Of a DNA stretch of 26,257 nt, positions 616 through 17,328 are shown one piece after another. The DNA comes from Candidatus Asgardarchaeum abyssi (GTDB taxonomy: Archaea > Asgardarchaeota > Asgardarchaeia > Asgardarchaeales > Asgardarchaeaceae): positions 1 to 26,257 of the forward strand of contig JBECUL010000030.1 of NCBI GenBank assembly GCA_040225955.1, given 5' to 3'. Each line of letters begins with the position of its first letter. Position 1 is the first letter of the stretch. The notes below the pieces were generated by a model. The model was not told the origin of the DNA. It saw only the letters and a list, made by a program, of their open reading frames with translations, and searched no databases. Position numbers and translations under genes: made by a program.

Positions 616-2016
616 ATGAGCGTTTATGATAAGCTTAAGCCTTTATTCTCTCCGAAAACAATAGCTGTTATAGGTGCTAGTGAAAAAGAAGGGTCTCTAG
701 GAAGAGCTATAATGAACAATTTGTTATCTATAAAGTTTCCAGGAAAGATATATCCCATAAATATAAAAGGAGATACATGCTTTGGCTTAAAGATGTATAG
801 ATCGGTCTTAGACGTTGATGGTAAGATAGATTTGGCTATTATAATAATTCCAGCTCGGGCTGTACCTACAGTTCTAGAGGAATGCGTTAAAAAAGGTGTT
901 AAATCCGCTATTATAATTAGTGCTGGTTTTAGTGAGGCTGGAGAAGAGGGAAAAAAGCTTGAAGAGAAAGTACTGTCAATTGCAAGAGAGGGTAACATTA
1001 GAGTTTTAGGTCCTAATTGTTTAGGAATTTATAACCCAAGAAGCAAAATAGACTTAATTTTCAACCCTCCAGATAGACAACAAAAGCCAGGTCCTGGAAA
1101 AATAGCATTCCTTTCGCAGTCAGGTGCTTTTGGTGCCGCAATTCTGGACTTTATGGCCGAAGAAAATATAGGAATAAGTTCTTTTGTTAGCTATGGTAAT
1201 GCTATGGACATCACCGAAAGTACACTGTTAGAATACTTTGCTGAGGATCCAGAAACTTCAGTAATAACAATGTACATAGAAGGAGTAAAAGACGGACGTG
1301 CTTTTGTGGAAGTTGCAAAAAGAGTTGTGCCAAAAAAACCTATAATTGTCCTGAAGGCAGGAAGAACAGAAGCTGGCGCGAGAGCTGCTAAGTCTCATAC
1401 AGGTAGTCTCGCCGGCGCGGATGCTGTTTATGATGCTGCATTCAGACAATTAGGTATCATACGTGCAATTAGTATGGATGACTTATTCATAAAGGCAAAA
1501 GCATTATCTCTCCAACCACCAGCCAAGGGGGATCGAATAGCCATTGTAACAAATGGAGGTGGTGTTGGGGTAATGGCCTCCGATGCTATCGAGTTAGAAG
1601 GAATGAAAGTTGCAGAATTATCCTCAGAAACCATTAAGAAACTTAAGGAAGTATTACCGCCTCACGCATCTCCTTATAATCCTATTGATATTCTAGGTGA
1701 CGCTGACTATATACGCTACTCTAATGCAACTAAACTTGCTCTTTCTGATCCAAATGTAGATGGTGTGATTGTCCTTATTATTCCACAGTCTCCAGCTTTA
1801 GAACACCAAAAGCTTGTTGAAAGTTTAGTTGATATTATAAAATCGCAAGAAAAACCAGTAACTATAGCTATTCCTGGAGGTGACATTTCGAAAAGGGTAT
1901 CAGAGGAATTTGAAAAACATGAAATTCCAACGTATAAGACTCCTGAGGATGCAGTAATGGCTATGAAAGCTTTAGTATTATATGGTTACGCTCTAAAAAA
2001 ATACGGCTTGCTTTAA
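616..2016 (+). CDS. acdA: Acetate--CoA ligase (ADP-forming acetyl-CoA synthetase) alpha subunit
   Basis: CoA-binding N-terminus (PKTIAVIGAS), GPNCLG, SQSGA, the phospho-His motif SHTGSLAG, TNGGG and NPIDILGD. The 466-aa length matches a stand-alone alpha subunit. Confidence 0.93.
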   Translation: MSVYDKLKPLFSPKTIAVIGASEKEGSLGRAIMNNLLSIKFPGKIYPINIKGDTCFGLKMYRSVLDVDGKIDLAIIIIPARAVPTVLEECVKKGVKSAIIISAGFSEAGEEGKKLEEKVLSIAREGNIRVLGPNCLGIYNPRSKIDLIFNPPDRQQKPGPGKIAFLSQSGAFGAAILDFMAEENIGISSFVSYGNAMDITESTLLEYFAEDPETSVITMYIEGVKDGRAFVEVAKRVVPKKPIIVLKAGRTEAGARAAKSHTGSLAGADAVYDAAFRQLGIIRAISMDDLFIKAKALSLQPPAKGDRIAIVTNGGGVGVMASDAIELEGMKVAELSSETIKKLKEVLPPHASPYNPIDILGDADYIRYSNATKLALSDPNVDGVIVLIIPQSPALEHQKLVESLVDIIKSQEKPVTIAIPGGDISKRVSEEFEKHEIPTYKTPEDAVMAMKALVLYGYALKKYGLL

Positions 2017-2767: not shown

Positions 2768-4084
2768 ATGAAAATAACTGTTAACGAGAAGCATACAATG
2801 ATAGTAGAAGGAGAAGCAACAATTAAAATAGTTGATGGTGAAGTAGAAATATTTGGTTCTCGCTTTTCTAAAGGCGAAGTAATATATGTCCCATATGCAA
2901 AAGCTTTACCATTATATGTATTGAAAAAATTAAGCGCTGAGGCACTATTTTCTGAAGGTGGTAAAATAAGAGAAGTTGATGAAAATACAATCCCTAATGA
3001 TTGGGACTCGGTTTTTGAGGAAATAAATTTACTTATCAAAAATTCTAAAAATATACCTGTAGTTTTATTTATCGGCGATGTTGATACAGGAAAAACAACT
3101 CTAATTACCTACGTGATGAATAAACTATCACAAAGTGGCTATAATATCGCAGTAATAGATGCTGATACTGGACAAAGTGATGTAGGGCCTCCTACTACTA
3201 TTGGATTAGGTCTTCTAAGGAAAGGCAAGGTTGTATATTCACTTAAAGATGTCGAGTTCATAGACGCCTTCTTCTTAGGATTAACGTCACCCGCAGGTTT
3301 GCTTCATCGTTCAATTACTGGAGTTCAACTTATGGTTGAAAAGGCAAAGAAATTAGATACGAACGCTATTCTAATTGATACTACTGGTTGGGTCTATGAT
3401 CATAATGCTAGAGATTTAAAACTGCTAAAAGTTTTATCCGTTAAGCCTGACTTAATTGTACTCATTGAGAAAGAAAATGAACTTGAATATTATTACAAGA
3501 TGTTTCATAAGTTCTTTAAGATTTTACGAGTTACCGCTTCAAGATATGTACGGGCTAGAGACAGAGAAGAGCGAAGAATGTTAAGGCAAAAAATGTATGC
3601 ATATTTCTTACTTAATGCTAAAGAAATAGAGATAGACTTGGAACAAACATCTGCCCTCTATTCATTTCTATGGACAGGGTCTGAGGTAAATAATGAAGAT
3701 GCTATTAACCTTATTTCATCAACTCTTAGTATTGAGGTTAATAAAATTCTATATGTAGAGGAAACTACAGACTGTATAATCGTAATTACCGAAAGAGGGA
3801 CTTTCATACCGATTGATAAAGTTGATAAGCTAAAAGATGTTTTTGCAAAGAGAGAAGTGAAAGTTATATCAAGAGATGTTTTCGATAACCTTCTTGTAGC
3901 TTTTTTGGACAGTAACTTTTCCTTCCTTGGGATAGGTACGATTTTAGATGTTGATTTTAAAAAGAGAAAACTAAAAGTATATTCAAATGTGAATCCAAAT
4001 AATGTCAGTGCTTTAATGTTTGGTTACATTCGAATTTCACCTGAAGGTGAAGAATTAGGTTGGACTGGACATTGGCCATTTTAA
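2768..4084 (+). CDS. Clp1/Grc3/Nol9-family polynucleotide 5'-hydroxyl kinase
   Basis: Walker A GDVDTGKTT, DADTGQSDVGPP, IDTTGW, Arg-rich lid RDREERRMLR, and an N-terminal beta domain typical of Clp1. Confidence 0.9.
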   Translation: MKITVNEKHTMIVEGEATIKIVDGEVEIFGSRFSKGEVIYVPYAKALPLYVLKKLSAEALFSEGGKIREVDENTIPNDWDSVFEEINLLIKNSKNIPVVLFIGDVDTGKTTLITYVMNKLSQSGYNIAVIDADTGQSDVGPPTTIGLGLLRKGKVVYSLKDVEFIDAFFLGLTSPAGLLHRSITGVQLMVEKAKKLDTNAILIDTTGWVYDHNARDLKLLKVLSVKPDLIVLIEKENELEYYYKMFHKFFKILRVTASRYVRARDREERRMLRQKMYAYFLLNAKEIEIDLEQTSALYSFLWTGSEVNNEDAINLISSTLSIEVNKILYVEETTDCIIVITERGTFIPIDKVDKLKDVFAKREVKVISRDVFDNLLVAFLDSNFSFLGIGTILDVDFKKRKLKVYSNVNPNNVSALMFGYIRISPEGEELGWTGHWPF

Positions 4085-4100
4085 TAATTTATTTTCGGTA

Positions 4101-4242
4101 TGCTTTGTTGACCAAAACAATGTTATATTGAAGTTATGAAATCGGAATTTAGAGCAAGTTATTATGATATCGCATATAACACATTTATCAGCGATATTAT
4201 TATAACATTACGCAACCATTCATTGAATTGTTCAACAAAGCA
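4101..4242. mobile_element. 142-bp MITE with imperfect 22-bp terminal inverted repeats and an 8-bp target-site duplication
   Basis: Left end TGCTTTGTTGACCAAAACAATG (4101-4122) versus reverse complement of right end TGCTTTGTTGAACAATTCAATG (4221-4242): 19/22 match, first 11 perfect. Flanked by the perfect direct repeat TTTCGGTA at 4093-4100 and 4243-4250. No transposase ORF. Confidence 0.88.
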
Positions 4243-4270
4243 TTTCGGTAATAAGATTTTTATTATAGTT

Positions 4271-4287
4271 ATAAAGTATATAAAAAG
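4271..4287 (+). promoter_or_regulatory. Putative BRE/TATA promoter of ecfT
   Basis: ATAAAG-TATATAAAAAG about 40-60 bp upstream of the start codon. Confidence 0.4.
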
Positions 4288-4324
4288 CATATATAGTCTG
4301 TATAATTAATTCAATCAATCAAAT

Positions 4325-5398
4325 GTGGTGGATGCAGTGTATATGCAAACATTTGATTACCTTATAATACTCATTAAATCGCTTAAATATTTTCTAAATG
4401 ATCTAATGATGATACCAGTAGGTGATTATACACTTGGCGAGTGGCTCTATGCAATCTTCTTGTTTGTTATCGTCATTCCACTAGTACCGGGTATTATAGC
4501 ATATCTTATTTTCAAAACGATAGGTATAAGTGGATTTAGAAGACTTTTCTCGTTTAGTAAAGTTGATAGTCCAATGCATAGATTAAATCCTATAACTAAA
4601 ATATTATATGTCCTTATGATAGGAGTCTCTGTTGCAATTCTTGAAGAAAATATCTTTATAGGTGATATTGAAATAAGAATGGAATATATTATGCTCGCAC
4701 TTTTCTTCTCAACTTTCATTGGCTGGAAATATGCAAATCCATCCTCTCAAAAACTTAGAGCTATGACAATAATAATATTGACGCAATGGTTAGTCATTGC
4801 ATGGGGTCAATCTTTCCTCAATCCTGGATTTTCTACTAATCCACGATATCCTGCAGTGTTTATTTTTCCAAGACCACTATGGCTCTTAGGAATACAGCGA
4901 ATAACTGTAGACGGATTCAGATATGGATTTGTACAAGGTATTAGGGTTGCTGCTGCATTAAGCGCAGCTTTATTATTAATAACCACAACACATCCGTCAT
5001 ACATTATTTATGCGTTAAGGAAATTTAAAATTCCTCTTGAAATAAATTTCATGGTAAGTATAACCTTTAAGAGTATTCCAACTATCCTTGAAAAGAGTTT
5101 CTTAGTATTAAGTGCTGAGAGAGCAAGAGGCTTAAACATTAGACCAGAAAGAACTTATAACATCCCTAAAGCTATAAAATCTGCTCAAAGACAATTGAAA
5201 AATATAGTTTATGCGATATTTCCAATAATCATAGAGTCCGTACGAGCTGCTAGGCAGATGGCTGTTGCCGCAAATGTTCGAGCTTTCAGAGCGGAGAAAA
5301 CAAGAACATATTATAAGGAAATTCCAATGAGCACAAAAGATAAAATTCTTAGCTTAATTTTTGTGGCTATAATGGTTATACTTTTTATCCTAACATAA
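4325..5398 (+). CDS. ecfT: ECF transporter transmembrane component T (CbiQ/EcfT family) with an N-terminal TM extension; likely start ATG at 4343
   Basis: DSPMHRLNPITK, TTTHPS..YALRKFKIP, and coupling motifs ERARG and NVRAF (variant of xRG). Confidence 0.88.
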   Translation: MVDAVYMQTFDYLIILIKSLKYFLNDLMMIPVGDYTLGEWLYAIFLFVIVIPLVPGIIAYLIFKTIGISGFRRLFSFSKVDSPMHRLNPITKILYVLMIGVSVAILEENIFIGDIEIRMEYIMLALFFSTFIGWKYANPSSQKLRAMTIIILTQWLVIAWGQSFLNPGFSTNPRYPAVFIFPRPLWLLGIQRITVDGFRYGFVQGIRVAAALSAALLLITTTHPSYIIYALRKFKIPLEINFMVSITFKSIPTILEKSFLVLSAERARGLNIRPERTYNIPKAIKSAQRQLKNIVYAIFPIIIESVRAARQMAVAANVRAFRAEKTRTYYKEIPMSTKDKILSLIFVAIMVILFILT

Positions 5399-5428
5399 CC
5401 TCCTGGAGTAATTCCATTCCTTTAATTA

Positions 5429-5755
5429 TTATTTTTCTAAATTTCTAATTTCAAAAATAATAGTTTTTGTTTTTGCTTCTACGGCTTTTCTTTCTCCTCT
5501 ATTTACTTTTATTATATCTCCTGATTTGTATTCAATTGCATTCTCTGAGTCGCTATATATAAGGCCACTTCCTTGTTTTATTAAGAAAATTGTTTCAAAT
5601 TTGTCAGTTTCTGGAAATTGATATTTTTCGCCTTTATCAATAATTATGTAAAATATTGCTAAATTTCTATCTATCATCGCGATGTGCCGATTTGTTTCTC
5701 TTTCGCTCATGAGAGCTCTAATGTTTTTAAATTCTACTCTTCTCAAAATCTTCAC
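5429..5755 (-). CDS. Cupin-fold protein lacking the canonical metal-binding histidines
   Basis: Cupin pattern KGEK..P...ETIFLIKQGSG...KSGDIIKVNRGE.KAVEA; no His in either motif. Confidence 0.7.
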   Translation of the reverse strand: MKILRRVEFKNIRALMSERETNRHIAMIDRNLAIFYIIIDKGEKYQFPETDKFETIFLIKQGSGLIYSDSENAIEYKSGDIIKVNRGERKAVEAKTKTIIFEIRNLEK

Positions 5756-5850
5756 CTAGTTAGTATTTTTTTAAATGAAAACCAATAGCCATCAACTCTT
5801 CCAAAAATAAACTTTTGAATGATAATGTAAATATATAAAAATATAATTTG

Positions 5851-6456
5851 TTAAGATTCGCGAAAGCGCGGGAATAAATCGACTAATCTAAAATTACAGT
5901 TCCAGCAATATTCTGAGTTACTATATATTACCGCATTACAATTAGGGCATCTAATCGGAAGCTTTAATGGATATTTGTATTCCTCCTCTACTTTTATGCC
6001 CCCTTCTTCTAGTCTTGTGAAGAAAGGCTTTGGTTTTCTCATTTCTCTAATTCCAGAGAAAATTGCTGCACTGCCCAAAAGTGTAATAAATGTATAGATA
6101 GATGGAAGTGTAAAAATAGCAGGTATTGTTTCTAAAGAAAATACATAATAAAAGACCAAGAGGAAGTAACCAATTATTGATGATGTCAACCCATAGATTA
6201 ATTTCCTAGTAACTTCTCCTATAAAAAGTCCTGCTAAAATCCAAGAAATAATTACTGCGATAAGTGAGTTTGTTTGCATAGCTTTAACATCTATAAGGAA
6301 AACGTAATTCAATAAAGTATCTAAAGGTATGGGATTATTATGATATAGCCCTATTTCTTTTTGAAAAGCTACTGCAAGAATCGTAAGTAAGATTGGTGGG
6401 GTAACTGCAGCTGTCATGGATCCGACAAATATTTTAAATGATGACATGTCAATCAC
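5851..6456 (-). CDS. Membrane protein (about 4 TM) with a C-terminal zinc ribbon; likely start ATG at 6447
   Basis: Four hydrophobic segments followed by CPNC-x10-CWNC; GGTGA SD before the ATG at 6447. Confidence 0.75.
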   Translation of the reverse strand: MIDMSSFKIFVGSMTAAVTPPILLTILAVAFQKEIGLYHNNPIPLDTLLNYVFLIDVKAMQTNSLIAVIISWILAGLFIGEVTRKLIYGLTSSIIGYFLLVFYYVFSLETIPAIFTLPSIYTFITLLGSAAIFSGIREMRKPKPFFTRLEEGGIKVEEEYKYPLKLPIRCPNCNAVIYSNSEYCWNCNFRLVDLFPRFRES

Positions 6457-6529
6457 CTGTTTATTATATTAAGTTCGCATAGACTTAGAAAGGACATATA
6501 AATATAAAGAAAAAGCAGAGTTTATGGAT

Positions 6530-8275
6530 TTAAAACTTTTCTTTGAATTTAAATGGAATTATTAAAATAGCAACTCCGAGTATTACGACAATCGCTAGTG
6601 CAGCTATTATTTGAGGCCATGGTAGCTCAGTTTCAGTAACTGGAATCACCACAACTTTTTTGCTTGTTGAGGCTATAAAGTTGCCATTGTCCATCAAAAT
6701 AGCAACAATATAATATGTTCCATCTTTTTCAAATTTATATGTTAATGAAGCAATTCCAATATTATTCTTTATCAACTCCTCAGCGTGCGTAATATAAGTG
6801 GTATTAATTAGTGTGCCATTTTGGTCAATAATACCAACTACTATTGTTAGATTTAAGTTGTCCGTGGAATTAACAAGAAATGTTACGTTTATTGAAACCA
6901 ATTCGTTTTCTTCTGGAAGTAGATTACTGACGCTAAGGGTTATATCACCAAATGGTTCTGTAAATGCATATAGCACATCACCATCTACAGTTGATGGTAT
7001 GTGTACACCAAGATAGGCTAGTACTGTTGGCATTATATCTATAATTTCTGCATTTGATAAATCAAATGTGCTTTTAACATTCCAGCCAGCGATGTATAGT
7101 GGTATTGTTTGCTCATCGGTTCCTCCGTGACTTCCTTCAGATTCCGTATATGCTGTATATCCATCCTTAAGAACAACATACAGGTCTCCTGCAAATGTTG
7201 TATTAAGGTGAATATCGCTTAGGGTTCCATTCACAGATGTTGTAGCCCATCTGCTATATATTTCTTTAACTATTCCAGAATCCCATGCATCTTCCACAGC
7301 TTTTTCTAAGTCACTTGGATCCTTTAAATATATGAACATTGCACGTCCACCTACTTCAATTGCATAATGATCCACGGTTATAGCACTCCATCTAATTTTT
7401 ATAGTCATAGCTGTTTTTGCTGGATCAGTATCTGAAAATCCATGATCTGAAGTTACAATAAATAACGTGTGTGACCATAGATTTTTTTCTTTTATCGCTG
7501 AAACTAAACGTCCAATTTGCGCGTCAGCATTCTGAACTATCTGATTGTATTCCGTTGAATTAGGACCATAAGCATGACCAGCCCAATCTGTTGCAGGGAG
7601 ATTTATAACCATTAATACACGTTCTCCAAGTTTTAATTTACTTTCCACTCTATCAAGGCATGAAAGACTTTGATTTATTATCCACTCATCTTGCATTAGT
7701 CGTAAATCTAATGGAAATTGTGGATCATAAGGATCATAAGTATTATACTCCGTATAATTAGTAGGTAAAGTATAGAATGCTCCAACAGGTCCCATAACTG
7801 AAAGTTTCTCCTTTCCAACTATAAGTATAGTATCTATGCCATCTTGAGTTGCGATTGAGATAAGAGATGGAACTTGCCTAACTTCGGAGAGGTGATCAGG
7901 TACATAAATTACCTCTGGTGTGTCTGATGTTGAGAGATGCCATTCACTTGAATTTATAACAAGCGTATTAGCAATCCCATTTGTTTCTGGATAAGCTCCT
8001 GTTGCTAAGGCTGCATGCGCAACAGTAGTTACAGAAGGCAGTACGGTTTTTGCATTAAGAGTATATATTCCTTCACTAGATAGGGATGATAGGGTTGACA
8101 GATTAAGAGTTGGAATTATAGTGGGTTCTAGTCCATCGATAATCACCACAACAGCAAACCTCCCATAGAATTGAGTATCATTACTATATGCTATGGTATT
8201 GAAGTTCTCTGATGCGGTGATAGGTAGCATTATCAGAGCCGTAATCCATAAGATTAATATAATTCGCGCTTCCAT
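6530..8275 (-). CDS. Secreted, C-terminally anchored alkaline-phosphatase-superfamily hydrolase (nucleotide pyrophosphatase/phosphodiesterase-like)
   Basis: Signal peptide; IIDG; PSVTTVAH (Thr nucleophile); DWAGH; TSDHG; GSHGG; a C-terminal beta-rich domain, then a TM helix with a basic tail. Acidic, with many N-x-S/T sequons. Confidence 0.9.
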   Translation of the reverse strand: MEARIILILWITALIMLPITASENFNTIAYSNDTQFYGRFAVVVIIDGLEPTIIPTLNLSTLSSLSSEGIYTLNAKTVLPSVTTVAHAALATGAYPETNGIANTLVINSSEWHLSTSDTPEVIYVPDHLSEVRQVPSLISIATQDGIDTILIVGKEKLSVMGPVGAFYTLPTNYTEYNTYDPYDPQFPLDLRLMQDEWIINQSLSCLDRVESKLKLGERVLMVINLPATDWAGHAYGPNSTEYNQIVQNADAQIGRLVSAIKEKNLWSHTLFIVTSDHGFSDTDPAKTAMTIKIRWSAITVDHYAIEVGGRAMFIYLKDPSDLEKAVEDAWDSGIVKEIYSRWATTSVNGTLSDIHLNTTFAGDLYVVLKDGYTAYTESEGSHGGTDEQTIPLYIAGWNVKSTFDLSNAEIIDIMPTVLAYLGVHIPSTVDGDVLYAFTEPFGDITLSVSNLLPEENELVSINVTFLVNSTDNLNLTIVVGIIDQNGTLINTTYITHAEELIKNNIGIASLTYKFEKDGTYYIVAILMDNGNFIASTSKKVVVIPVTETELPWPQIIAALAIVVILGVAILIIPFKFKEKF

Positions 8276-8491
8276 TGAGATACCCCTAGCATAATTATTT
8301 AAATATAGAAAATCTTGAAATATGAAGTGAACGGGTTTATTGTACTATTTATTATAAGAACTTTATAATATTTTGTATAGATTTATGTGAAAATTGATAA
8401 GTAACTAATAAAAAAGATATAAATACGCTCGAATATCAGAATCTATAATATTTATAAAAAGAAGAAGGAAGTACTGAACGAGTTGATGTAA

Positions 8492-10243
8492 ATGAGTTCA
8501 GAGAATTATGCTATAGAAATAAATAATTTGTCATTCAAGTATCCTCGTGGCGATGAATATGTTCTTAAGAATATAAACTTAAAGGTTAAAGAAGGCGAGT
8601 TTTTGCTCCTTATGGGGCCTTCAGGATGTGGAAAGACAACATTAGTGAACACAATTAATGGCATAATACCTCATGTAATTGAAGGTGTTCGAGAAGGTAG
8701 TGTACTTGTTTTTGGAAAAGATGTAAAAGAAACTCCTATTAAAAATATAAGTGAGACTGTTGGTACTGTGTTTCAGAATCCAGAAACACAATTTTTCACA
8801 ATGACCGTAGAAGAAGAACTAGCGTTTGGTCCAGAAAATCTTAATGTTCCACCAGAAGAGATTAAAGATCGCATCAGAGAAGCAATAGAATACGTTGGAA
8901 TTGAAGATTTACTGGATAAAGATATAATGAGCTTAAGTGGTGGCCAAAAGCAAAGGGTTGCTATTGCATCCATTCTTACGATGAAACCAAAAATTCTAAT
9001 ACTTGATGAGCCCACATCAGACCTAGATCCCGAGGGTGCTGCAGAGGTTCTTGCAACGGTTAAACGACTTAATGAGCGGTTGAATTCTACTATACTACTA
9101 ATTGAACATAGATTAGAGGAAGTTTCTAAACACGTTGATAGAGTAATAGTTATGAACGAAGGGAAAATAATAGCTCAAGGTACACCAAGAAAAGTGTTTA
9201 ATGATACAGAAATGTTAGAAAGTATAGGAATCCGTCCTCCTCAGTCAACACAAGTTGTTGTTGAGCTAAAAAAGAGAGGTTTTAGCATTCCCAACATCGC
9301 ACTAACTGTCGAAGAAGTAGTAATGGCGCTTCGCAATTTAATAAATAATAACTTAAAAACATCACCACTAAAGAAAATTGAGATAAAAGATAGAACTCAA
9401 TACAAAATAAAAGAAGAAAATGTACCGCAAATCGAAATAAAGAATCTATGGCACTTGTATCCAGATGGCACATTAGCTTTGCGGGGAATTAATTTAACGA
9501 TACATAAGGGTGAATTTATTGGTATTATTGGGCAAAATGGTGCTGGCAAATCAACGTTGGTATCTCATTTAATTGGATTACTCCATCCATCTCAAGGATA
9601 TGTTAAGCTATATGGAAGGGATGTAACAAAACTTCCTGTTTCTGAGATTGCAAGGTATATAGGCTTTATCTTTCAAGATCCTGATCTTATGCTGTTTCAA
9701 TCGACGGTCTGGGATGAAATTGCATTTGGTCCAAGGAATATGGGGTTGGACGAAGAAGAAGTCAGGAAGCGTGTAGAAGAATCAATTGATATGATGAGAC
9801 TAAAGGGATATGAAAAGAGGCATCCTCATGCTTTAAGTAGAGGTCAGAGACATAGGGTCGCAATAGCGAGTGTTTTATCTATGAGACCAGAGATTTTAAT
9901 AGCGGATGAACCAACTACAGGCCAAGACTACGGTGCTACTAAGAAATACTTAGAGCTTCTTAAACGATTAAATGAGGAAGGTAAAACTATTATTGTAATA
10001 AGTCATGATATGAAAACAATTGCAAAATATGTTGATAGAGTAATCGTTTTGAAAAAAGGAAGAATTTTACTAGATGGGCCAACTAGAAAAATATTTGAAA
10101 AGGTCGACCTTTTGGCATCCACTAATATAGATCCTCCGCAAGTCACTCAAATTTCTTTGAATCTAAAAGAGTTTGGAATACCTGTAGCTTTAACTGTTGA
10201 AGAGCTAGTCGATACAATTACAGAGCTTCTGAGAAGGGAATAA
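8492..10243 (+). CDS. ecfA: ECF transporter ATPase with two fused ABC domains (EcfA-A', YkoD-like)
   Basis: Domain 1: GPSGCGKT, FQNPETQ, LSGGQKQR, LDEPT, EH. Domain 2: GQNGAGKS, FQDPD, LSRGQRHR, ADEPT, SHD. Each has an ECF-type C-terminal PP motif. Confidence 0.92.
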   Translation: MSSENYAIEINNLSFKYPRGDEYVLKNINLKVKEGEFLLLMGPSGCGKTTLVNTINGIIPHVIEGVREGSVLVFGKDVKETPIKNISETVGTVFQNPETQFFTMTVEEELAFGPENLNVPPEEIKDRIREAIEYVGIEDLLDKDIMSLSGGQKQRVAIASILTMKPKILILDEPTSDLDPEGAAEVLATVKRLNERLNSTILLIEHRLEEVSKHVDRVIVMNEGKIIAQGTPRKVFNDTEMLESIGIRPPQSTQVVVELKKRGFSIPNIALTVEEVVMALRNLINNNLKTSPLKKIEIKDRTQYKIKEENVPQIEIKNLWHLYPDGTLALRGINLTIHKGEFIGIIGQNGAGKSTLVSHLIGLLHPSQGYVKLYGRDVTKLPVSEIARYIGFIFQDPDLMLFQSTVWDEIAFGPRNMGLDEEEVRKRVEESIDMMRLKGYEKRHPHALSRGQRHRVAIASVLSMRPEILIADEPTTGQDYGATKKYLELLKRLNEEGKTIIVISHDMKTIAKYVDRVIVLKKGRILLDGPTRKIFEKVDLLASTNIDPPQVTQISLNLKEFGIPVALTVEELVDTITELLRRE

Positions 10244-10292
10244 ATAAAAGGATATAAAGTAGATCTTCTTTTTTATTACTTTGAAACACAAT

Positions 10293-11546
10293 CTACTCTT
10301 CAGCAGTAGTTTCTTTTTTCTCAGAGTACCCTATTTTTTCAGCAATTCCTAGATCAAATGCATAGTCTATCCTAATTAGTACCATGAAAATGAAAGCTCC
10401 TATGCCGAATTCGAATAAGCTTGCAAGGAAATAACGTATTGCCGCTACACCCGCAGGTGGAATATCAAATTCTAAGTTTTCTGAAGCAAGCCCAGCTTCA
10501 GCACGTCCCCATCCTGGTACACCAATCCCTACCACTATTGTACCGAGTAGCGGATATTGGATTAATGCGACAATAACGTAGAAGATAGCTACTATTAGTG
10601 CATATTTCATGGCTCTGCTAGTATTTCCTCTGAATACATACATTCCTATTACTCCAGCTGCAAGTCCAAATATATCTAAGATTGGAATGAATAGTTCTAA
10701 CTTTGTTGGCGCTTTAATGAAACCTCCTTTAAGCCAACCAACTATGTTAAAGAACAATTTTTCATTATCGCCAAGAGAAACAAAAGCCTCACTTGTCCCT
10801 TGTTTATCACTAAACATCTTACTGCTTCCACATACAATAATCCTTGTATTTTCTAATTCTATAGCAACAAGCCATGGGATATATCCAACTTTATGTATAT
10901 TATCATTTGTGTCTTTAGCGTACGAGTCCTCATCGCTGGTTGCTACTATAATTGATGAATCATATACAATAAGACTAGGCGAGTTGATATAAACTGTTTC
11001 AATACCAGCGCTAATTATATGAGGCTGGAAATAATCTTTTGTAACAAGAACATTCCATGGACTTCCGTCGTTTGATGTGTCATCATATATTTCATCGCCA
11101 TTGTCATTAGTTCCATAAAATTCTACCTTATCAGCAACACCTATCGTTTGTAGGATAGTATTGAGATTATCTGGCTGCCCATAATGACGATCACCATACT
11201 GAACATCACCCATAATTAATAATTTACCACCATTGGAGACATATTCGGAAAGAGCATTTAATTCGTCCTCTGAGAAAGGACTTATTGGATTTGGTATGAC
11301 GAATATATCATAATCTTTAAGAATATCATAGGTTACATTTGCATCATTTGGGTCAACCATAATTCCTTGAGACTCTAAGTCGCTCTCCAGTTTTGTATAT
11401 TTTTCGAGACTGTAATATTGCCCATGGGAATTATCCCATAGAATTTTTATTTCCTCTTCTTGGGCGCTTATAGTTGCAATGAGTGTGGATTGAATGAGTA
11501 GGGCCGTGAAAAATAGAAGTATGATAATGGTTACTTTACGCATCAA
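10293..11546 (-). CDS. Secreted GIFT (GldG/IFT52-like, DUF4350, class I glutamine-amidotransferase-like fold) domain protein with about 3 C-terminal TM helices
   Basis: Signal peptide; ILWDNSHGQ; DIFVIPNPISPFSEDELNALSEYVSNGGKLLIMGD; RIIVCGSSKMFSD; DNEKLFFNIVGWL; followed by a TM bundle. Confidence 0.78.
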   Translation of the reverse strand: MMRKVTIIILLFFTALLIQSTLIATISAQEEEIKILWDNSHGQYYSLEKYTKLESDLESQGIMVDPNDANVTYDILKDYDIFVIPNPISPFSEDELNALSEYVSNGGKLLIMGDVQYGDRHYGQPDNLNTILQTIGVADKVEFYGTNDNGDEIYDDTSNDGSPWNVLVTKDYFQPHIISAGIETVYINSPSLIVYDSSIIVATSDEDSYAKDTNDNIHKVGYIPWLVAIELENTRIIVCGSSKMFSDKQGTSEAFVSLGDNEKLFFNIVGWLKGGFIKAPTKLELFIPILDIFGLAAGVIGMYVFRGNTSRAMKYALIVAIFYVIVALIQYPLLGTIVVGIGVPGWGRAEAGLASENLEFDIPPAGVAAIRYFLASLFEFGIGAFIFMVLIRIDYAFDLGIAEKIGYSEKKETTAEE

Positions 11547-11732
11547 TAATCCTCCTTAATCTTTACTGCAATGTTAATTATATTTGGAGTGTAGGGTCTT
11601 ATTATTTTTTTTATCGTGAAAATTAAATATAACATTCTATTTCTATAAAACTTTAATTCCTAATTTATATATTAAAAGACAAAATATAAATCCAATAAGA
11701 TAATCAACATAATAATAACTCTGTTTATAAGG

Positions 11733-13004
11733 GTGGCAGTAATGAATAAAACTCAGAAAAAACTTTTAGCATTTGTATTAATTTTAGCATTCCTCATGGG
11801 ACTAACTAATGCACTTACAGAAGTTTTAGTTTACGGAGCTGGTCAGGTAAGCGTTGAAATAAAAGCACCATCGAATGTTGGTAGTGGTGGTAGACCATAT
11901 GAAGATGGTGTAATGGTCGCTGGACGAAGATACGGATATGAGGTGACTATCTTTCTATCAAATGTCGGTGATGAAGCGTTAACTGATATAACTGTGTATG
12001 GAGATGCTGTTGGGACTCCAGAACCTGGTTCTGAATATACATTAAGCCCTAGATCTTCAGACACCCCTAAGATAATCTTCCCGAATGGTTCTGTGATCAA
12101 TGTAGAGTGGGATCTTAACAATGGACGGGCAATATTTGAAGTAGAAAAGATAGAACCAGGAGAAACTTATCAACTAAGATATTATGTTAATGTTCCAGAA
12201 AGTGTAGACAGAGATTATGAAGTAACCTTAAAGATAATTGTAATCATAGGTGAAACTCAACAAACCTTTGAAAAGAAAGTAGTGATAACACCACCTCCAA
12301 TGTGGCGAGAGTATCTTGTCATTGGATTAACATTAGTAGCATTTGTTGGATTAATATTAATGGGTAAATTTGGCTTCTTTAATCTATACTCCAACGTGGA
12401 CTTGGTTACAATCAGTATGTTAGCTGCAGCGCAGGTTGTATGGGTACAAATAATTGGTAGACAATTCGTATTTCCAGTACTAGATAGAATTCCAATGACG
12501 TATAACTTCGCGGTAGGAGACTTTCCATATATACTATTATTAATCACCTCAGCAATGCTTGTCAGAAAACCTGGTACTGTGAGCCTTACATTATTCGTAT
12601 ATAACATTGTTTCTGAAATTGGATGGTACGGCCTTAATCCACTATGGTGGCCATATCCATTTGCTCAAGGATTAGCTGCAGATTTGTACATGCTACTAAG
12701 AGGAAGAGCTATTTTCACAGAAAGAGTTGCATTCTTTAAGCTAAAGATAACTCCTGAAGAATTAGAGAAGCTTCCTACGATACACTATCTTGATCTTGTA
12801 GATGGTTTCATTATAGGATTCCTTAGAGGTCTATTTATGCAATTGTCATTATACTTAGTGTTCTATCCAAATCTGTTTCACCTATACTATGCATGGGGAT
12901 ATGCTTTCTACTGGGTTACGATACCATGGGCATTTGGAAACGGAATAGAAGGAGCTATATCGGTTAAAATAGCAGCAAAAATAGAAGAAGCTCTGCAATA
13001 CTAA
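11733..13004 (+). CDS. ECF S-component (YkoE-like) fused to an N-terminal extracellular Ig-like domain
   Basis: The C-terminal half has DLVTISMLAAA, MLVRKPG and FAQGLAADL patterns and about 6 TM helices, as in YkoE-type S components. The N-terminus has a signal/TM segment and a beta-rich domain (YEVTIFLSNVGD...IEPGETYQLRYYVNVP). Confidence 0.72.
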   Translation: MAVMNKTQKKLLAFVLILAFLMGLTNALTEVLVYGAGQVSVEIKAPSNVGSGGRPYEDGVMVAGRRYGYEVTIFLSNVGDEALTDITVYGDAVGTPEPGSEYTLSPRSSDTPKIIFPNGSVINVEWDLNNGRAIFEVEKIEPGETYQLRYYVNVPESVDRDYEVTLKIIVIIGETQQTFEKKVVITPPPMWREYLVIGLTLVAFVGLILMGKFGFFNLYSNVDLVTISMLAAAQVVWVQIIGRQFVFPVLDRIPMTYNFAVGDFPYILLLITSAMLVRKPGTVSLTLFVYNIVSEIGWYGLNPLWWPYPFAQGLAADLYMLLRGRAIFTERVAFFKLKITPEELEKLPTIHYLDLVDGFIIGFLRGLFMQLSLYLVFYPNLFHLYYAWGYAFYWVTIPWAFGNGIEGAISVKIAAKIEEALQY

Positions 13005-13121
13005 AACAATAATGCTCATTTTTTATTTTCTATTGCACTATTTTTTAATTATTAGTATCGCTATTCTTAATGTTAATCAGAGACTATTAATATTGTTAAT
13101 AAAAAGAAATCTTCCCTATTG

Positions 13122-14381
13122 TTAATTATTTCTTTTTATATAATCGGTTACAGTGGTCTGATACTTCAACATATCTATAAGATAAGAACTCTTAATCCAC
13201 AAATTTATTGGTGTTCTTAATCTTGATTGGACATCCTCTATTGCTTCACTAAGTGAAGGAAATTTCTTAGGTGGTCTTTTTAAGGCTGTTCTTACGTTTT
13301 CTCTTATTTGCCAGTTTCCCACTGGAGCAAAATATTCTGGACGAATTTCCCTTACAACTATAACTGCAGCTTGTCTTCTAATTCTATTTAAGTACTCAAA
13401 TACACCCAATCTGATGGCATAATATCCTCCATCTTCATCACTTACACGTCCATCTGCTAGTTCATAAACATAATAAATCTCTGGCTTTTCTGTTGGAACC
13501 CATATTGTTTGAGGCATCCAAATCTCAATCATTTCTAGAGCTAGTGAATGTGGATACATAATTATTTCATAGTGGTTGCCAAGATATTCATTATGAAAAA
13601 CAAGAATATCGCTCACTAAATCATAAGTTATGATAGTTTTTCTCATTTTTTCTGATAACATTTTATCAACAGCTGTTATTGACCAGCGAGTTGGAACCAA
13701 TTTTCTTCTATTTCTATATCCAAATACGCCTACACTTAGCATTCTTATTAAGGAATATATACTGATATTTGAGGAGTATAATTCCCATATTGCATCAACA
13801 GTTTTTATATCTTTATCTTCAATAATCTGATCTACTTTCCTTGGAATTACAGGATTCGATGCTAAGTCTAATTTATTTACTTGTCCTTCTACTCCAATAG
13901 GTGTAACAATACCATCAAAAGTTAAACGGTAAAGAGGAGGTTTTCGTAACTTAACTTCAACATCTGTTGGTTTTATAGACATCGATAGCTCCTGCAATTT
14001 TTCAAGTAATTTTTCTTGAAAGCGAGATGGTGTTTTTATATGCATATTAGCTTTAGAATAAAGAAGAGAGGCTCTGAATTTAATTATATCGAGAAGAGAA
14101 GTTCGTTTTTTAATCCAATCTTTAGGAGAATCGAAAAGCCTTGCAGGCTCTCCAGTTTCTGGAGGCACCAAACCACCTATATTTATTCTTGGGTATCCCC
14201 ACTCTCCAACAAAAACACCAGGAGGTGATGATCCAAAAAATTCAGTTTTTCTCCCAATCTTCTGAGAAACTTCCCTTAGAGATCGAATTCTAAGCAGAAT
14301 AGGACATACGGGCCTTCCACAAAGATGTCTAGATCCCTTACATAAAGTACAAATATTCTTACCTACGCTTTTTAAGATCAT
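13122..14381 (-). CDS. nreA: Nre-family archaeal DNA repair protein (DUF650/DUF651)
   Basis: N-terminal CTLCKG..LCGRPVCPIL, GSSPPGVFVGEWGYP, LVPTRWSITAVD, GGYYA, PVGNWQIRENVR, and a C-terminal PIP-like QTTVTDYI. Confidence 0.92.
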   Translation of the reverse strand: MILKSVGKNICTLCKGSRHLCGRPVCPILLRIRSLREVSQKIGRKTEFFGSSPPGVFVGEWGYPRINIGGLVPPETGEPARLFDSPKDWIKKRTSLLDIIKFRASLLYSKANMHIKTPSRFQEKLLEKLQELSMSIKPTDVEVKLRKPPLYRLTFDGIVTPIGVEGQVNKLDLASNPVIPRKVDQIIEDKDIKTVDAIWELYSSNISIYSLIRMLSVGVFGYRNRRKLVPTRWSITAVDKMLSEKMRKTIITYDLVSDILVFHNEYLGNHYEIIMYPHSLALEMIEIWMPQTIWVPTEKPEIYYVYELADGRVSDEDGGYYAIRLGVFEYLNRIRRQAAVIVVREIRPEYFAPVGNWQIRENVRTALKRPPKKFPSLSEAIEDVQSRLRTPINLWIKSSYLIDMLKYQTTVTDYIKRNN

Positions 14382-14446
14382 CCCTAATACAGTATGCTCT
14401 TTTGCATTTTAATATTTTAGCATATAAAAATAAATTGTGTTTTTAT

Positions 14447-15874
14447 TTATGTTTGTTCTTTTTCTCTAATTTCTTTAATTCTTCTTTTTACTCTCTTATG
14501 CTCCATAATTGCAATTAGCAACATTATCACACCAACAGTATATCCGAGATAGTTTAATGTGAAGTATAAGACATATTGGAAAATCAGATAGTTCCCCACT
14601 TCGTGAAGTTTTTCAACTCGCAGTGACTTAAGATCTAAAGATGAATTTCTTATCTGATTTACTATTGTCTCATTAAATGCATCATAGATTGCAACTCCTT
14701 GCATATGGTCGTATTCCTCTTCAGGAATTCCTAGCGTGAATAGAATAGTTGCTGCAATGTCTACAATTCTTGCTGCTTTGACATGATGCCCCTTATTTAA
14801 AACTGGGCTCCATAGGAATAGAGGAATATCTATTACAAGTGATGGGAGAATATGATGGTGCCTTCGCTCAAACATTCCATGGTCCGCAATTACAATTATT
14901 AATGAGTCGTTAAGAATACCCATCTCATCTAATTTTTCAAAAAGTCTACTTACTTGTAAGTCATTAAGTTTCATAGCTTCTCTGTATTGGGGACTGTCGT
15001 GCCCAAATTGATGACCAACCTCATCAGTATCTGGAAGATGAACGTACATAATATTTGGCACGTCATCATCTAAATGGGCCAAAGCTTTATCCATGGCATC
15101 CTTTGACCCAGTATATGTAGTTACTCTTTCTATATAGCCTTGTGGGGCATCATCGCCTAACATTGACATAAAATTTCCACCAACTATAAATGACTTATAA
15201 TCATACTTTGCAGCTATTTCAAAGACGTCTGGGACATCTAAGTCTATCACGTAGTTCTCGAAAACTCCATGAACTTCGGGATACACACCTGTAAACATTG
15301 ACGTATGAGCGGGATATGTTACTGGAGGATCTACTGTGACAGCATGATCTACAATAACGCCTTCGGATGATATGTTTTTTATAAACGTTACTGTGTCCCA
15401 AAATACATCTGCTCTTGCACCATCAAATGTTAATACGAAAATATGATGAACTAACGGTTCTGCTACCTCTTTTTCTGATTTAATATTAGTTTTAGTTGCT
15501 GATCCACCTGCATAGGGTTGAGTAAAGAGAAAAGCTATTAATATAAATATTACAATTCCCGTTTTGATTACCCTTCCCTTTTTCATTTTGTTAAGTATCG
15601 TTTTTTCTTTACTTTTAATAAAAACTATGAATCCAAAGGCGAAGATTATTATTCCTGGCACTATAAATATAGTCCATTCCCTTAGTAGATATGTAAGATT
15701 GCTGTAACTTACATGAATCGCCACTACACTATCTTCTAGTGCATTTATATCATCTGTACTGAGCAACATAAAAGGATAAATTACTGCAATTATCCATATA
15801 ACAATAATCAATAAAAGAACTATTTTTGTAATCTTACTTTTTAGTAGCTTGCTTATGATACTCAAGAGTAGCAC
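14447..15874 (-). CDS. Multi-pass membrane alkaline-phosphatase-superfamily hydrolase (NPP/phosphodiesterase-like)
   Basis: Three N-terminal TMs; TFDG; PPVTYPAH...TGVYPEVHGVFEN; DTDEVGH; ADHG; HHH; C-terminal TM with a basic tail. Confidence 0.88.
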   Translation of the reverse strand: MLLLSIISKLLKSKITKIVLLLIIVIWIIAVIYPFMLLSTDDINALEDSVVAIHVSYSNLTYLLREWTIFIVPGIIIFAFGFIVFIKSKEKTILNKMKKGRVIKTGIVIFILIAFLFTQPYAGGSATKTNIKSEKEVAEPLVHHIFVLTFDGARADVFWDTVTFIKNISSEGVIVDHAVTVDPPVTYPAHTSMFTGVYPEVHGVFENYVIDLDVPDVFEIAAKYDYKSFIVGGNFMSMLGDDAPQGYIERVTTYTGSKDAMDKALAHLDDDVPNIMYVHLPDTDEVGHQFGHDSPQYREAMKLNDLQVSRLFEKLDEMGILNDSLIIVIADHGMFERRHHHILPSLVIDIPLFLWSPVLNKGHHVKAARIVDIAATILFTLGIPEEEYDHMQGVAIYDAFNETIVNQIRNSSLDLKSLRVEKLHEVGNYLIFQYVLYFTLNYLGYTVGVIMLLIAIMEHKRVKRRIKEIREKEQT

Positions 15875-16644: not shown

Positions 16645-17328
16645 TTATTTGACTCTCTCTATGCTGAAATCTATCTTATCTTTCTCTTCTATAATTATAT
16701 TAGCATAAAATCCTCGGGATGCTGGCCCCGGATTTATTATGAGGGTTCTTCCTATATAGTCGTATCCTTGCGCCTCGTGAATGTGTCCATGAGTCGACAA
16801 AAGCGGCTGATACTCCTCAATTATTCTCTTAACAGATTTACTACCAACATGTTGATGCATAAAAGTAATATCTAATTTAGTACCGTAGGGTGGTACATGC
16901 GTTACTAAAATAAGCTTCTTGTCACGATAATCACTAGCATCTATACTACTTTTTAAACGATCATATATTTCATTCTCATTAAATTCAATCAATGTATTAA
17001 ATGGTGTTATATTTGATCCTCCAAAACCTACTATAACAAAATTATTCATCTCTACGTTTTTCTCATGAATATTTCTACATGTTCGAATGATATCCACATT
17101 TAAAAGTTCCCTTGGATCACAATTACCAGGAATGAAAAAGGTTGGTATATCTTCGAATGAGAGATACTTTAGTATTGCTGAAACTTGATTAATGCTTCCA
17201 AAATGTACAATATCTCCAATTATTATTACAACATCAGGTTTAGTTTTCAAAATATTTCTTCTCTGCTTTACAACTGCTGTAAAATATCCATGAATATCCG
17301 TTATAGCATAGATCCGCACCGCTCTCAC
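16645..17328 (-). CDS. Calcineurin-like metallophosphoesterase (Icc-related)
   Basis: TDIHG, GDI, PGNCD, THVPP, HGHIHE and NPG motifs. Confidence 0.92.
   Translation of the reverse strand: MRAVRIYAITDIHGYFTAVVKQRRNILKTKPDVVIIIGDIVHFGSINQVSAILKYLSFEDIPTFFIPGNCDPRELLNVDIIRTCRNIHEKNVEMNNFVIVGFGGSNITPFNTLIEFNENEIYDRLKSSIDASDYRDKKLILVTHVPPYGTKLDITFMHQHVGSKSVKRIIEEYQPLLSTHGHIHEAQGYDYIGRTLIINPGPASRGFYANIIIEEKDKIDFSIERVK

Follow-up and report, generated by a model that had tools for sequence, protein, structure and literature searches.

A conserved gene cluster combining an ECF transporter with putative extracellular phosphoesterases and GIFT-domain proteins in an Asgard archaeon

Transporters of the energy-coupling factor (ECF) type are regarded as minimal machines, composed of S, T, A and A' components, of which the S component canonically sits nearly wholly in the membrane and topples during transport. 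Here, we analyse a gene cluster around an ECF transporter in a 26,257-nucleotide stretch of DNA (the window) from Candidatus Asgardarchaeum abyssi. The window is contig C30 of the metagenome-assembled genome (MAG) G000, which is 2.6 Mb large and 93% complete. Apart from a T component (EcfT), a fused ATPase (EcfA-A') and a putative S component (S423), the conserved set contains a zinc-ribbon membrane protein (ZnR201), two ectoenzymes (NPP1 and NPP2) and GIFT-domain proteins (GIFT417 in the window). The set departs from the minimal ECF composition by the large ectodomain of its S component, its zinc-ribbon partner, its fixed ectoenzymes and its GIFT proteins. Its most likely function, to which we give somewhat better than an even chance, is the dephosphorylation of a phosphorylated nutrient at the cell surface, followed by import through the ECF module. 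The literature on GIFT domains and ECF transporters, and on Njordarchaeales and ECF transporters, yielded no account of such a system, so that we found no previous description of it in the literature searched.

Several described systems resemble parts of this cluster. YkoEDC, the group I ECF transporter for thiamine and hydroxymethylpyrimidine of Bacillus subtilis, also combines a fused A-A' ATPase with dedicated T and S components; YkoE is the best structural match of the S423 core and shares an RKPG motif with it, and distant relatives of S423 pass the YkoE Pfam model. In contrast to YkoE, S423 has extra transmembrane helices and an Ig-like domain, does not itself match PF09819 and does not clearly keep the thiamine ligands. 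YkoF and a thiamine pyrophosphate (TPP) riboswitch are lacking here, whereas ZnR, two NPP-type ectoenzymes and GIFT proteins are added as conserved partners. In the group I ECF metal transporters CbiMNQO and NikMNQO, CbiN and NikN or NikKL, which have extracellular parts, load the S component, and NikM bears an extra N-terminal transmembrane helix. These are likewise dedicated ECF modules, which depend on small accessory membrane proteins, but the accessories of the present cluster (ZnR and GIFT) are unrelated to theirs, the S component is of YkoE type and enzymes belong to the set.

Dephosphorylation before uptake is known from Haemophilus influenzae, in which NAD is dephosphorylated at the surface by NadN and e(P4) before uptake by PnuC, and from animals, in which alkaline phosphatase precedes the uptake of thiamine and pyridoxal phosphate. 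Here too, as proposed from the genes only, a pyrophosphatase or diesterase and a monoesterase outside the cell would make the form that the transporter accepts. The enzyme families, the transporter class (ECF instead of PnuC or carriers) and the organisms are different, and in the present cluster a genetic link joins the enzymes to the transporter, with GIFT proteins alongside; we know of no case in which dephosphorylation outside the cell is hard-wired to an ECF transporter. GIFT proteins are also genetically attached to an ABC-type ATPase system in GldA-GldF-GldG, and OST48 is, like GIFT417, a membrane protein with a non-cytoplasmic GIFT domain and C-terminal transmembrane helices. However, the GIFT partner is an ECF module here, not an ABC-2 exporter, and, unlike OST48, GIFT417 has no link to STT3 and scores below the OST48_N cut-off.

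Conservation of the gene cluster

Neighbourhoods were drawn from species-representative genomes. Sixteen loci were built around S423 homologues, and extra loci were centred on zinc-ribbon or NPP1 orthologues in genomes that have their S gene elsewhere. All-against-all clustering of the open reading frames (ORFs) in 29 related loci revealed only six recurrent families, present in 18 (GIFT), 17 (S), 14 (ecfAA'), 13 (ecfT and NPP, each) and 12 (ZnR) loci. In the commonest order (L022, L023 and L033), NPP2 and NPP1 are divergent from a series formed by ecfAA', ZnR, ecfT, S and between one and three GIFT genes; further orders number at least eight (L021, L026, L039; L038; L040, L042; L018, L024, L030; L044; the window), and in L038 seven cluster genes are co-directional. 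The divergent arrangement of NPP1 and ecfAA' seen in the window is also present in L021, L022, L023, L026, L033, L039 and L042.

Within these varied orders, certain adjacencies are kept. The GIFT gene directly adjoins the S gene in 11 of the 16 S-centred loci, and NPP2 adjoins NPP1 in nine loci. Outside the window there are 11 triad loci, and in nine of them the NPP1-NPP2 pair flanks the ECF triad; the remaining two are short contigs. In ten related loci whose contig includes both flanks, the zinc-ribbon gene lies between ecfAA' and ecfT; in L042, it immediately follows ecfAA' at the end of the contig. Co-directional ecfAA'-ZnR-ecfT-S arrays are present in L022, L023 and L033, and an ecfAA'-ecfT-S array in L057. 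In three genomes (G020, G031 and G306) the S gene is on another contig, and the ECF triad is still beside NPP1-NPP2, accompanied by GIFT genes in G020 and G031; in G307, the triad is beside NPP1-NPP2 and the S gene about 22 kb away on the same contig.

A phylogenetic profile was made over 400 genomes of the phylum, among which G000 is the sole member of its own family; the NCBI labels of the others include Njordarchaeota, Heimdallarchaeota and Promethearchaeota. At E ≤ 1e-10, S423 is found in 16 of these genomes, strongly in 15 and as a weak partial match only in G146. Orthologues of NPP1 (E ≤ 1e-25) are present in the same 15 genomes. Strong orthologues of ZnR (E < 1e-50) are restricted to S423-bearing genomes and present in 12 of the 15 with S423 and NPP1; G009 has a weaker one (5e-21), and in G104 a ZnR-like gene is located inside the cluster. 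Within families, the profiles of S423 and NPP1 also agree, both being present in the same six of seven genomes in family f31 and in one of 22 in family f21. The f21 genome carries GIFT, ZnR-like, GIFT, NPP1-like, ecfAA' and ecfT genes on one contig (L044) and S and GIFT genes on another (L046).

A reduced version of the cluster was found in a Kor1 MAG labelled Thermoproteota (L057; JAVCBU010000003.1, 5653-12941), where a gene for an NPP2-like protein of 419 residues is divergent from ecfAA', ecfT, S and GIFT genes. Its S-like protein, a more distant homologue (36% identity), has 389 residues and an ectodomain, and its GIFT protein has 586 residues; NPP1 is lacking from the locus and a ZnR orthologue from the Kor1 genome. 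The GIFT gene of this locus is followed by an unannotated ORF of 890 residues.

The initial annotation had proposed that these genes form a cell-surface module, and in other genomes the hydrolases of alkaline phosphatase type, the GIFT proteins and the zinc-ribbon proteins do co-localise and co-occur with the ECF genes. A functional module is well supported by this conserved clustering through rearrangements and by the co-occurrence across genomes. Because the clustering is kept across rearranged loci and co-varies across genomes, it is far beyond chance, and its persistence through so many rearrangements is hard to explain without selection. The genes might instead have independent functions and be adjacent by ancestry, with NPP enzymes scavenging phosphate, generic GIFT surface proteins and an unrelated vitamin importer. 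The positive genomes all belong to a few related families, and such kin are not independent, which limits any statistics; furthermore, a GIFT paralogue of the same genome stands beside an ABC-2 transporter, and S-GIFT and ECF-NPP can sit on separate contigs. We nevertheless regard independent functions as quite improbable, given that the genes stay together in many orders and orientations, that the profiles agree within families, that the reduced module occurs in a MAG of a different phylum label and that no further gene family recurs in the loci.

Components of the cluster

EcfT scores 59.4 bits against PF02361 (cut-off 25), making it a T component of the CbiQ/EcfT family. It has an N-terminal extension of about 80 residues, which includes an additional hydrophobic segment, and its orthologues (45%–50% identity) are located inside the cluster in 13 loci. 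EcfA-A' contains two ABC_tran stretches within a single protein of 583 residues and exceeds the cut-offs of both TIGR04520 (543.7 bits) and TIGR04521 (542 bits); its orthologues in related loci are 54%–61% identical. The S, T and A genes of the window lie within 9 kb, in agreement with a group I layout. As judged by sequence and model, the module thus has the tested defining features of ECF transporters, namely a T component, A/A' ATPases, an S fold and a group I layout; it is a dedicated, group-I-like module.

ZnR201 consists of about four transmembrane helices and a cytoplasmic CxxC...CWxC zinc ribbon (DZR/Zn_Ribbon matches; alignment A2). From its gene position, it is most simply a candidate extra membrane subunit of the ECF module. 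A word-indexed search for homologues gave two proteins, the genome profile search being more productive. A paralogue of ZnR closes a second fused-ATPase module of the same genome, on contig C32. This second dedicated module (L034, G000:C32:15000-25043, positions 3438-7555) is composed of genes for a multi-transmembrane protein of 265 residues, a fused EcfA-A' (589 residues), an EcfT (283 residues) and the ZnR paralogue (221 residues), followed by a xylose-isomerase-like TIM-barrel gene. The 265-residue protein has no Pfam match and is a candidate S component. A general role of ZnR-like proteins as ECF accessories was rejected: in nine of ten sampled other Asgard genomes they adjoin an ACD-like gene, and ECF genes are not nearby. 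In these nine genomes (L047-L055), a weak ZnR-like paralogue of about 200 residues, with transmembrane helices and a zinc ribbon, is directly beside an ADP-forming acetyl-CoA-synthetase-like gene, so that the two make up a conserved pair.

For S423, an AF2 model was calculated from 29 homologues (pLDDT 88.5). From the N- to the C-terminus, the model contains a transmembrane helix, an Ig/pilin-like sandwich (residues 36-188, approximately), a second transmembrane helix (around 190-212) and a helical core (around 215-423). Hydropathy and charge distribution predict that the Ig-like domain faces outwards and that the S core begins on the inner side, in keeping with canonical S components. When Foldseek was run on the whole model, only Ig-like matches were returned; the S fold emerged only in a Foldseek-independent search, in which residues 218-423 matched 5edl_A best of 48,161 chains (rmsd 3.3 over 168 residues), with a Z-score of 14.1, which in the case of a helical bundle barely exceeds the caution level stated for the search tool. 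The S component 4hzu_S matched the model with a Z-score of 9.8, and in the same search the beta-sandwich resembled Ig-like domains of pilin or adhesin type. Entry 5EDL holds the thiamine-bound form of YkoE from B. subtilis (PMC5037267).

Sequence searches connect S423 to the same family transitively. The S423 profile found only 56 relatives among 1.84 billion representatives, and a first profile search of the PDB with alignment A1 gave nothing useful. Several distant relatives match PF09819 (ABC_cobalt, the YkoE family; gathering cut-off 25.2 bits), three of them above the cut-off (P0055 with 31.1, P0062 with 29.1 and P0065 with 28.1 bits), and one distant relative is named 'ECF transporter S component' by NCBI. 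With a widened profile, the best PDB sequence match was again 5edl_A, with an E-value of 0.71 that is not significant alone and the RKPG motif in common; Lys279, Pro280 and Gly281 of S423 are invariant in the family. The fold match to 5edl_A, the distant relatives above the PF09819 cut-off and the RKPG motif give good support to an S component of YkoE type, as had been put forward from the sequence at the outset. Conservation is far higher in the core than in the ectodomain; dozens of polar and aromatic residues of the core are invariant, which would fit one defined small ligand across the family. S423 also differs from the YkoE family, whose members have about 200 residues and are near-fully membrane-embedded, in having 423 residues, an ectodomain of about 150 residues and two extra transmembrane helices. 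Because the Pfam model does not match, size and architecture deviate and the ligand residues are uncertain, we prefer to regard S423, as far as sequence and model allow, as a divergent member of the YkoE superfamily and not as a YkoE orthologue. One of its orthologues (L027) is downstream of a znuABC-type metal transporter with an iron-dependent repressor.

NPP1 starts with a signal or anchor, followed by a PafA/NPP-like ectodomain of the alkaline phosphatase superfamily, the Ig-like DUF7490 and a C-terminal transmembrane anchor. It scores 133.8 bits against PF01663, and its closest solved relative is PafA (5tj3), with NPPs also near. NPP2, with 113.4 bits against PF01663, has three N-terminal transmembrane helices, an extracellular NPP-type domain and a C-terminal transmembrane helix; its closest solved relatives are Xanthomonas NPP (2gsn/7mw8) and ENPP4. 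In 12 orthologues of each, Asp47, Thr83, Asp230, Asp277, His278 and His383 of NPP1 and Asp151, Thr186, Asp284, His288, Asp331, His332 and His339 of NPP2 are invariant. The metal ligands and the threonine nucleophile are therefore intact in both, as expected for the NPP/alkaline phosphatase superfamily, and hydrophobic segments with their flanking charges predict both catalytic domains to be outside the cell. NPP2, being NPP-like, is probably a phosphodiesterase or pyrophosphatase; NPP1 resembles the phosphomonoesterase PafA and is probably such an enzyme as well. The two enzymes thus look complementary, one of diesterase/pyrophosphatase type and one of monoesterase type.

GIFT417 is composed of a signal peptide, an extracellular GIFT domain and a C-terminal block of about three transmembrane helices. 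With 48.9 bits for ABC_transp_aux and 35 bits for IFT52_GIFT, it exceeds the respective cut-offs of 34.7 and 27.2, and with 20.7 bits it stays below that of OST48_N (36). The best Foldseek match of its AF2 model (pLDDT 74) is the N-terminal domain of IFT52 (5fms; E-value 6e-12, TM-score normalised to the target 0.79-0.82), followed by OST48/WBP1 and the GATase-like domain of site-1 protease. By profile and predicted fold, GIFT417 and the multi-GIFT proteins can be said to carry true GIFT domains. The orthologues of GIFT417 inside the clusters are 41%–46% identical, and the GIFT proteins combine one to three GIFT domains with Ig domains of CARDB, DUF11 or Big_7 type.

The only other OST48_N-like sequence of the genome is a GIFT paralogue of 1134 residues (L035, G000:C11:27000-43000, positions 6283-12651), with three GIFT stretches, CARDB/NPCBM_assoc domains and an OST48_N score of 67 bits. 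Its gene is divergent from an ABC-2 transporter (a DrrA-like ATPase and two ABC-2 permeases), an arrangement that, in this Asgard genome, resembles GldAFG. ABC-2 genes occur in none of the S- or ECF-linked loci, so that GIFT417 does not share the GldG-type context; an assignment of the S-linked multi-GIFT genes to a neighbouring ABC-2 system was rejected, such loci being without ABC-2 genes. STT3/AglB is on contig C40, apart from both OST48_N-like genes. Divergent WBP1/OST48 homologues have been reported for Heimdallarchaeia including Njordarchaeales (Eme et al., PMC10307638). Possibly, these are the same GIFT proteins; if so, their context suggests transporter accessories and not subunits of the oligosaccharyltransferase. 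For GIFT domains outside gliding bacteria, the cluster also provides a clear genomic context for the first time.

These architectures bear on two other explanations. In the first, the cluster encodes a machine for modifying the envelope or surface, with phosphotransferases of alkaline phosphatase type or recycling of lipid-linked pyrophosphates on the outer face, GIFT proteins handling glycans and the ECF module supplying or retrieving a precursor. NPP2, with three N-terminal transmembrane helices before an external domain of alkaline phosphatase type, does resemble the architecture of LtaS and EptA, IFT52 and OST48/WBP1 are the solved structures nearest to the GIFT417 model, and the multi-GIFT proteins bear Ig-like surface domains. 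The enzymes, however, score best as Phosphodiest/NPP and PafA and not as Sulfatase or LtaS-type proteins, STT3/AglB is on another contig, glycosyltransferase or lipid-carrier genes recur in none of the loci, and S components are not known to do anything but import small molecules; an envelope machine therefore seems improbable to us.

The second explanation is a non-importing ECF ATPase that drives conformational work of extracellular GIFT and Ig domains, with the S-like protein as a membrane coupler. Such mechanotransmission has been proposed for GldAFG-type ABC systems; GIFT domains are classically attached to ABC systems (ABC_transp_aux, GldG), the GIFT paralogue of this genome is beside an ABC-2 transporter, and the ectodomain and two extra transmembrane helices of S423 could hinder toppling. 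Against this, the S core is very strongly conserved, with many polar and aromatic invariants such as a small-molecule pocket would have, the structure nearest to it is that of an S component which binds a ligand, and no ECF module is known to act in this way, making mechanotransmission very improbable.

Proposed function and substrate

For surface dephosphorylation followed by import, the following mechanism can be envisaged in this Asgard lineage related to Njordarchaeales. The importer would consist of EcfA-A', the extended EcfT, ZnR and S423. A phosphorylated nutrient that is not importable as such would be bound or concentrated at the cell surface and cleaved outside by NPP2 and/or NPP1; the S component would then capture the fully or partly dephosphorylated moiety, which would be taken in at the cost of ATP. 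The ectoenzymes look complementary, and a conserved divergent promoter region links them to the ATPase gene; most simply, they would turn an extracellular phosphorylated compound into the form that the S component binds. That the hydrolases feed the transporter is something we infer, as are the physical association, the reaction order and the direction of transport, and the role of the GIFT and zinc-ribbon proteins as physical subunits. The GIFT proteins may capture or scaffold.

As to the substrate, a thiamine-type pyrimidine compound is our leading guess, a weak one that we hold to be considerably less probable than its negation. The 93%-complete genome yielded no ThiC, ThiD, ThiT or thiamine pyrophosphokinase; there is a clear ThiL (C33:19589-20572, 210 bits), Thi4 matches are Rossmann-motif fragments only and ThiE is a weak partial match. 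The window carries a subunit of pyruvate:ferredoxin oxidoreductase, an enzyme that needs TPP. The thiamine-binding residues of YkoE are Tyr46, Trp49, Glu77, Gln95 and Asp131 (PMC5037267); Gln95 contacts the pyrimidine ring. In a low-confidence alignment of hidden Markov models (E-value 0.71), Gln95 corresponds to Gln312 of S423, Glu77 to Ser294 (with Glu295 adjacent), and Asp131 is unaligned. The YkoE kinship, Gln312, the pattern of Thi genes and the TPP-dependent enzyme favour a thiamine-type substrate, circumstantially. Nucleosides or bases derived from nucleotides, or another cofactor moiety, are alternatives. The S423 orthologues of one family (L025, L027, L028 and L029) adjoin the adenylosuccinate lyase and synthetase genes purB and purA, a weak hint on the substrate.

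Several points weigh against import after surface dephosphorylation, or against thiamine as the substrate. S423 has no Pfam or NCBIfam match, PF09819 giving none even at an E-value of up to 10 (its best hit in the whole genome, with 13.6 bits, is elsewhere), and the fold match has the borderline Z-score given above. In the same low-confidence alignment, Trp49 and Tyr46 of YkoE are replaced by Ile267 and Phe264, and the thiamine ligands are, by sequence, not clearly conserved. Tethered by its ectodomain and two extra transmembrane helices, S423 may not topple like a canonical S component. Without a pyrophosphokinase, TPP that is fully dephosphorylated outside is not obviously useful; as none was found, the useful import would be thiamine monophosphate and not thiamine, which fits the pyrophosphatase but not the monoesterase. 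An Rfam scan of the window gave no family, and hence no TPP riboswitch, and no shared regulatory motif was found across the intergenic regions examined. Nine contigs of the genome each carry an EcfT (CbiQ) gene, three of the nine together with a fused A-A' ATPase, which for 2.6 Mb is an unusually high count of dedicated ECF modules; vitamins could be taken up by modules other than this one. Shared ancestry can partly account for genes staying close together among relatives. Finally, to our knowledge no GIFT domain, in any system, has a known biochemical activity, and for this reason the role given to the GIFT proteins is a guess and the weakest link.

A stronger proposal, for which our confidence is low, is that the cluster represents a new architectural class of ECF transporter, defined by an ectodomain-bearing S component, fixed extracellular phosphoesterases and GIFT proteins for capture or scaffolding. 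If this were true, the OST48/IFT52-like GIFT proteins of Njordarchaeales type would be transporter accessories, the prokaryotic GIFT domain would have its first functional context, and it would suggest that eukaryotic GIFT proteins descend from such surface proteins. The conserved set also raises the questions of how tethered S components work and how archaea of hot sediments salvage phosphorylated nutrients.

Arrangement of the window and neighbouring genes

All genes named in the initial annotation were recovered in their places by the ORF listing and by Pfam and NCBIfam profile scans of the window proteins (Table 1). It was also right that the ECF genes and their partners are on both strands, and hence not one operon, and that NPP1 and ecfAA', as well as GIFT417 and S423, are divergent and share a spacer.

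Table 1. Features of the ECF cluster and nearby genes in the window (positions are those of the window)
Feature	Position	Strand	Remarks
ecfT	4325-5398	+	357 aa; PF02361 CbiQ 5e-16
cupin-like ORF, 108 aa	5429-5755	-	faint cupin signal, E about 0.07-0.13
ZnR201, 201 aa, about 4 transmembrane helices and C-terminal zinc ribbon	5851-6456	-	DZR/Zn_Ribbon matches
NPP1	6530-8275	-	Phosphodiest PF01663 1e-38; DUF7490; C-terminal transmembrane helix
Intergenic region shared by NPP1 and ecfAA', 216 bp	8276-8491		divergent pair, ORF coordinates
fused ecfA-A'	8492-10243	+	583 aa; TIGR04520/TIGR04521
GIFT417	10293-11546	-	ABC_transp_aux 48.9 bits, IFT52_GIFT 35 bits
Intergenic region shared by GIFT417 and S423, 186 bp	11547-11732		divergent pair, ORF coordinates
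S423	11733-13004	+	423 aa; no Pfam match; fold and transitive sequence links
nreA	13122-14381	-	
NPP2	14447-15874	-	Phosphodiest PF01663 2e-32
ACD-like gene	616-2016		
calcineurin-like metallophosphoesterase	16645-17328		about 0.8 kb from NPP2

Two genes among those of the cluster region do not belong to the conserved set: counterparts of the cupin-like ORF and of nreA were sought in the related loci by ORF clustering, and none were found. The split layout on both strands is real in the window but does not hold as a general feature, most relatives having a co-directional ecfAA'-ZnR-ecfT(-S-GIFT) series; in the window every ECF gene has a promoter of its own, a derived layout that stems from a local rearrangement. 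Common k-mers of the window intergenic regions are only AT-rich, TATA-like strings, and a comparison of eight spacers between NPP1 and ecfAA' revealed no conserved motif. A scan of the window for bacterial promoters, unsuited to archaea, stayed at the level of shuffled sequence.

Just upstream of ecfT, at positions 4093-4250, there is a short inverted-repeat element with the ends TGCTTTGTTGA...TCAACAAAGCA, flanked by a direct TTTCGGTA repeat (an 8-bp duplication). This element may mark one breakpoint of the cluster rearrangement. On the other side of the cluster, the calcineurin-like metallophosphoesterase gene listed in Table 1 was not seen in the loci other than the window and L030, a locus labelled Heimdallarchaeota, where a homologue with 37% identity (positions 9280-10044) is located about 2.4 kb downstream of ecfT.

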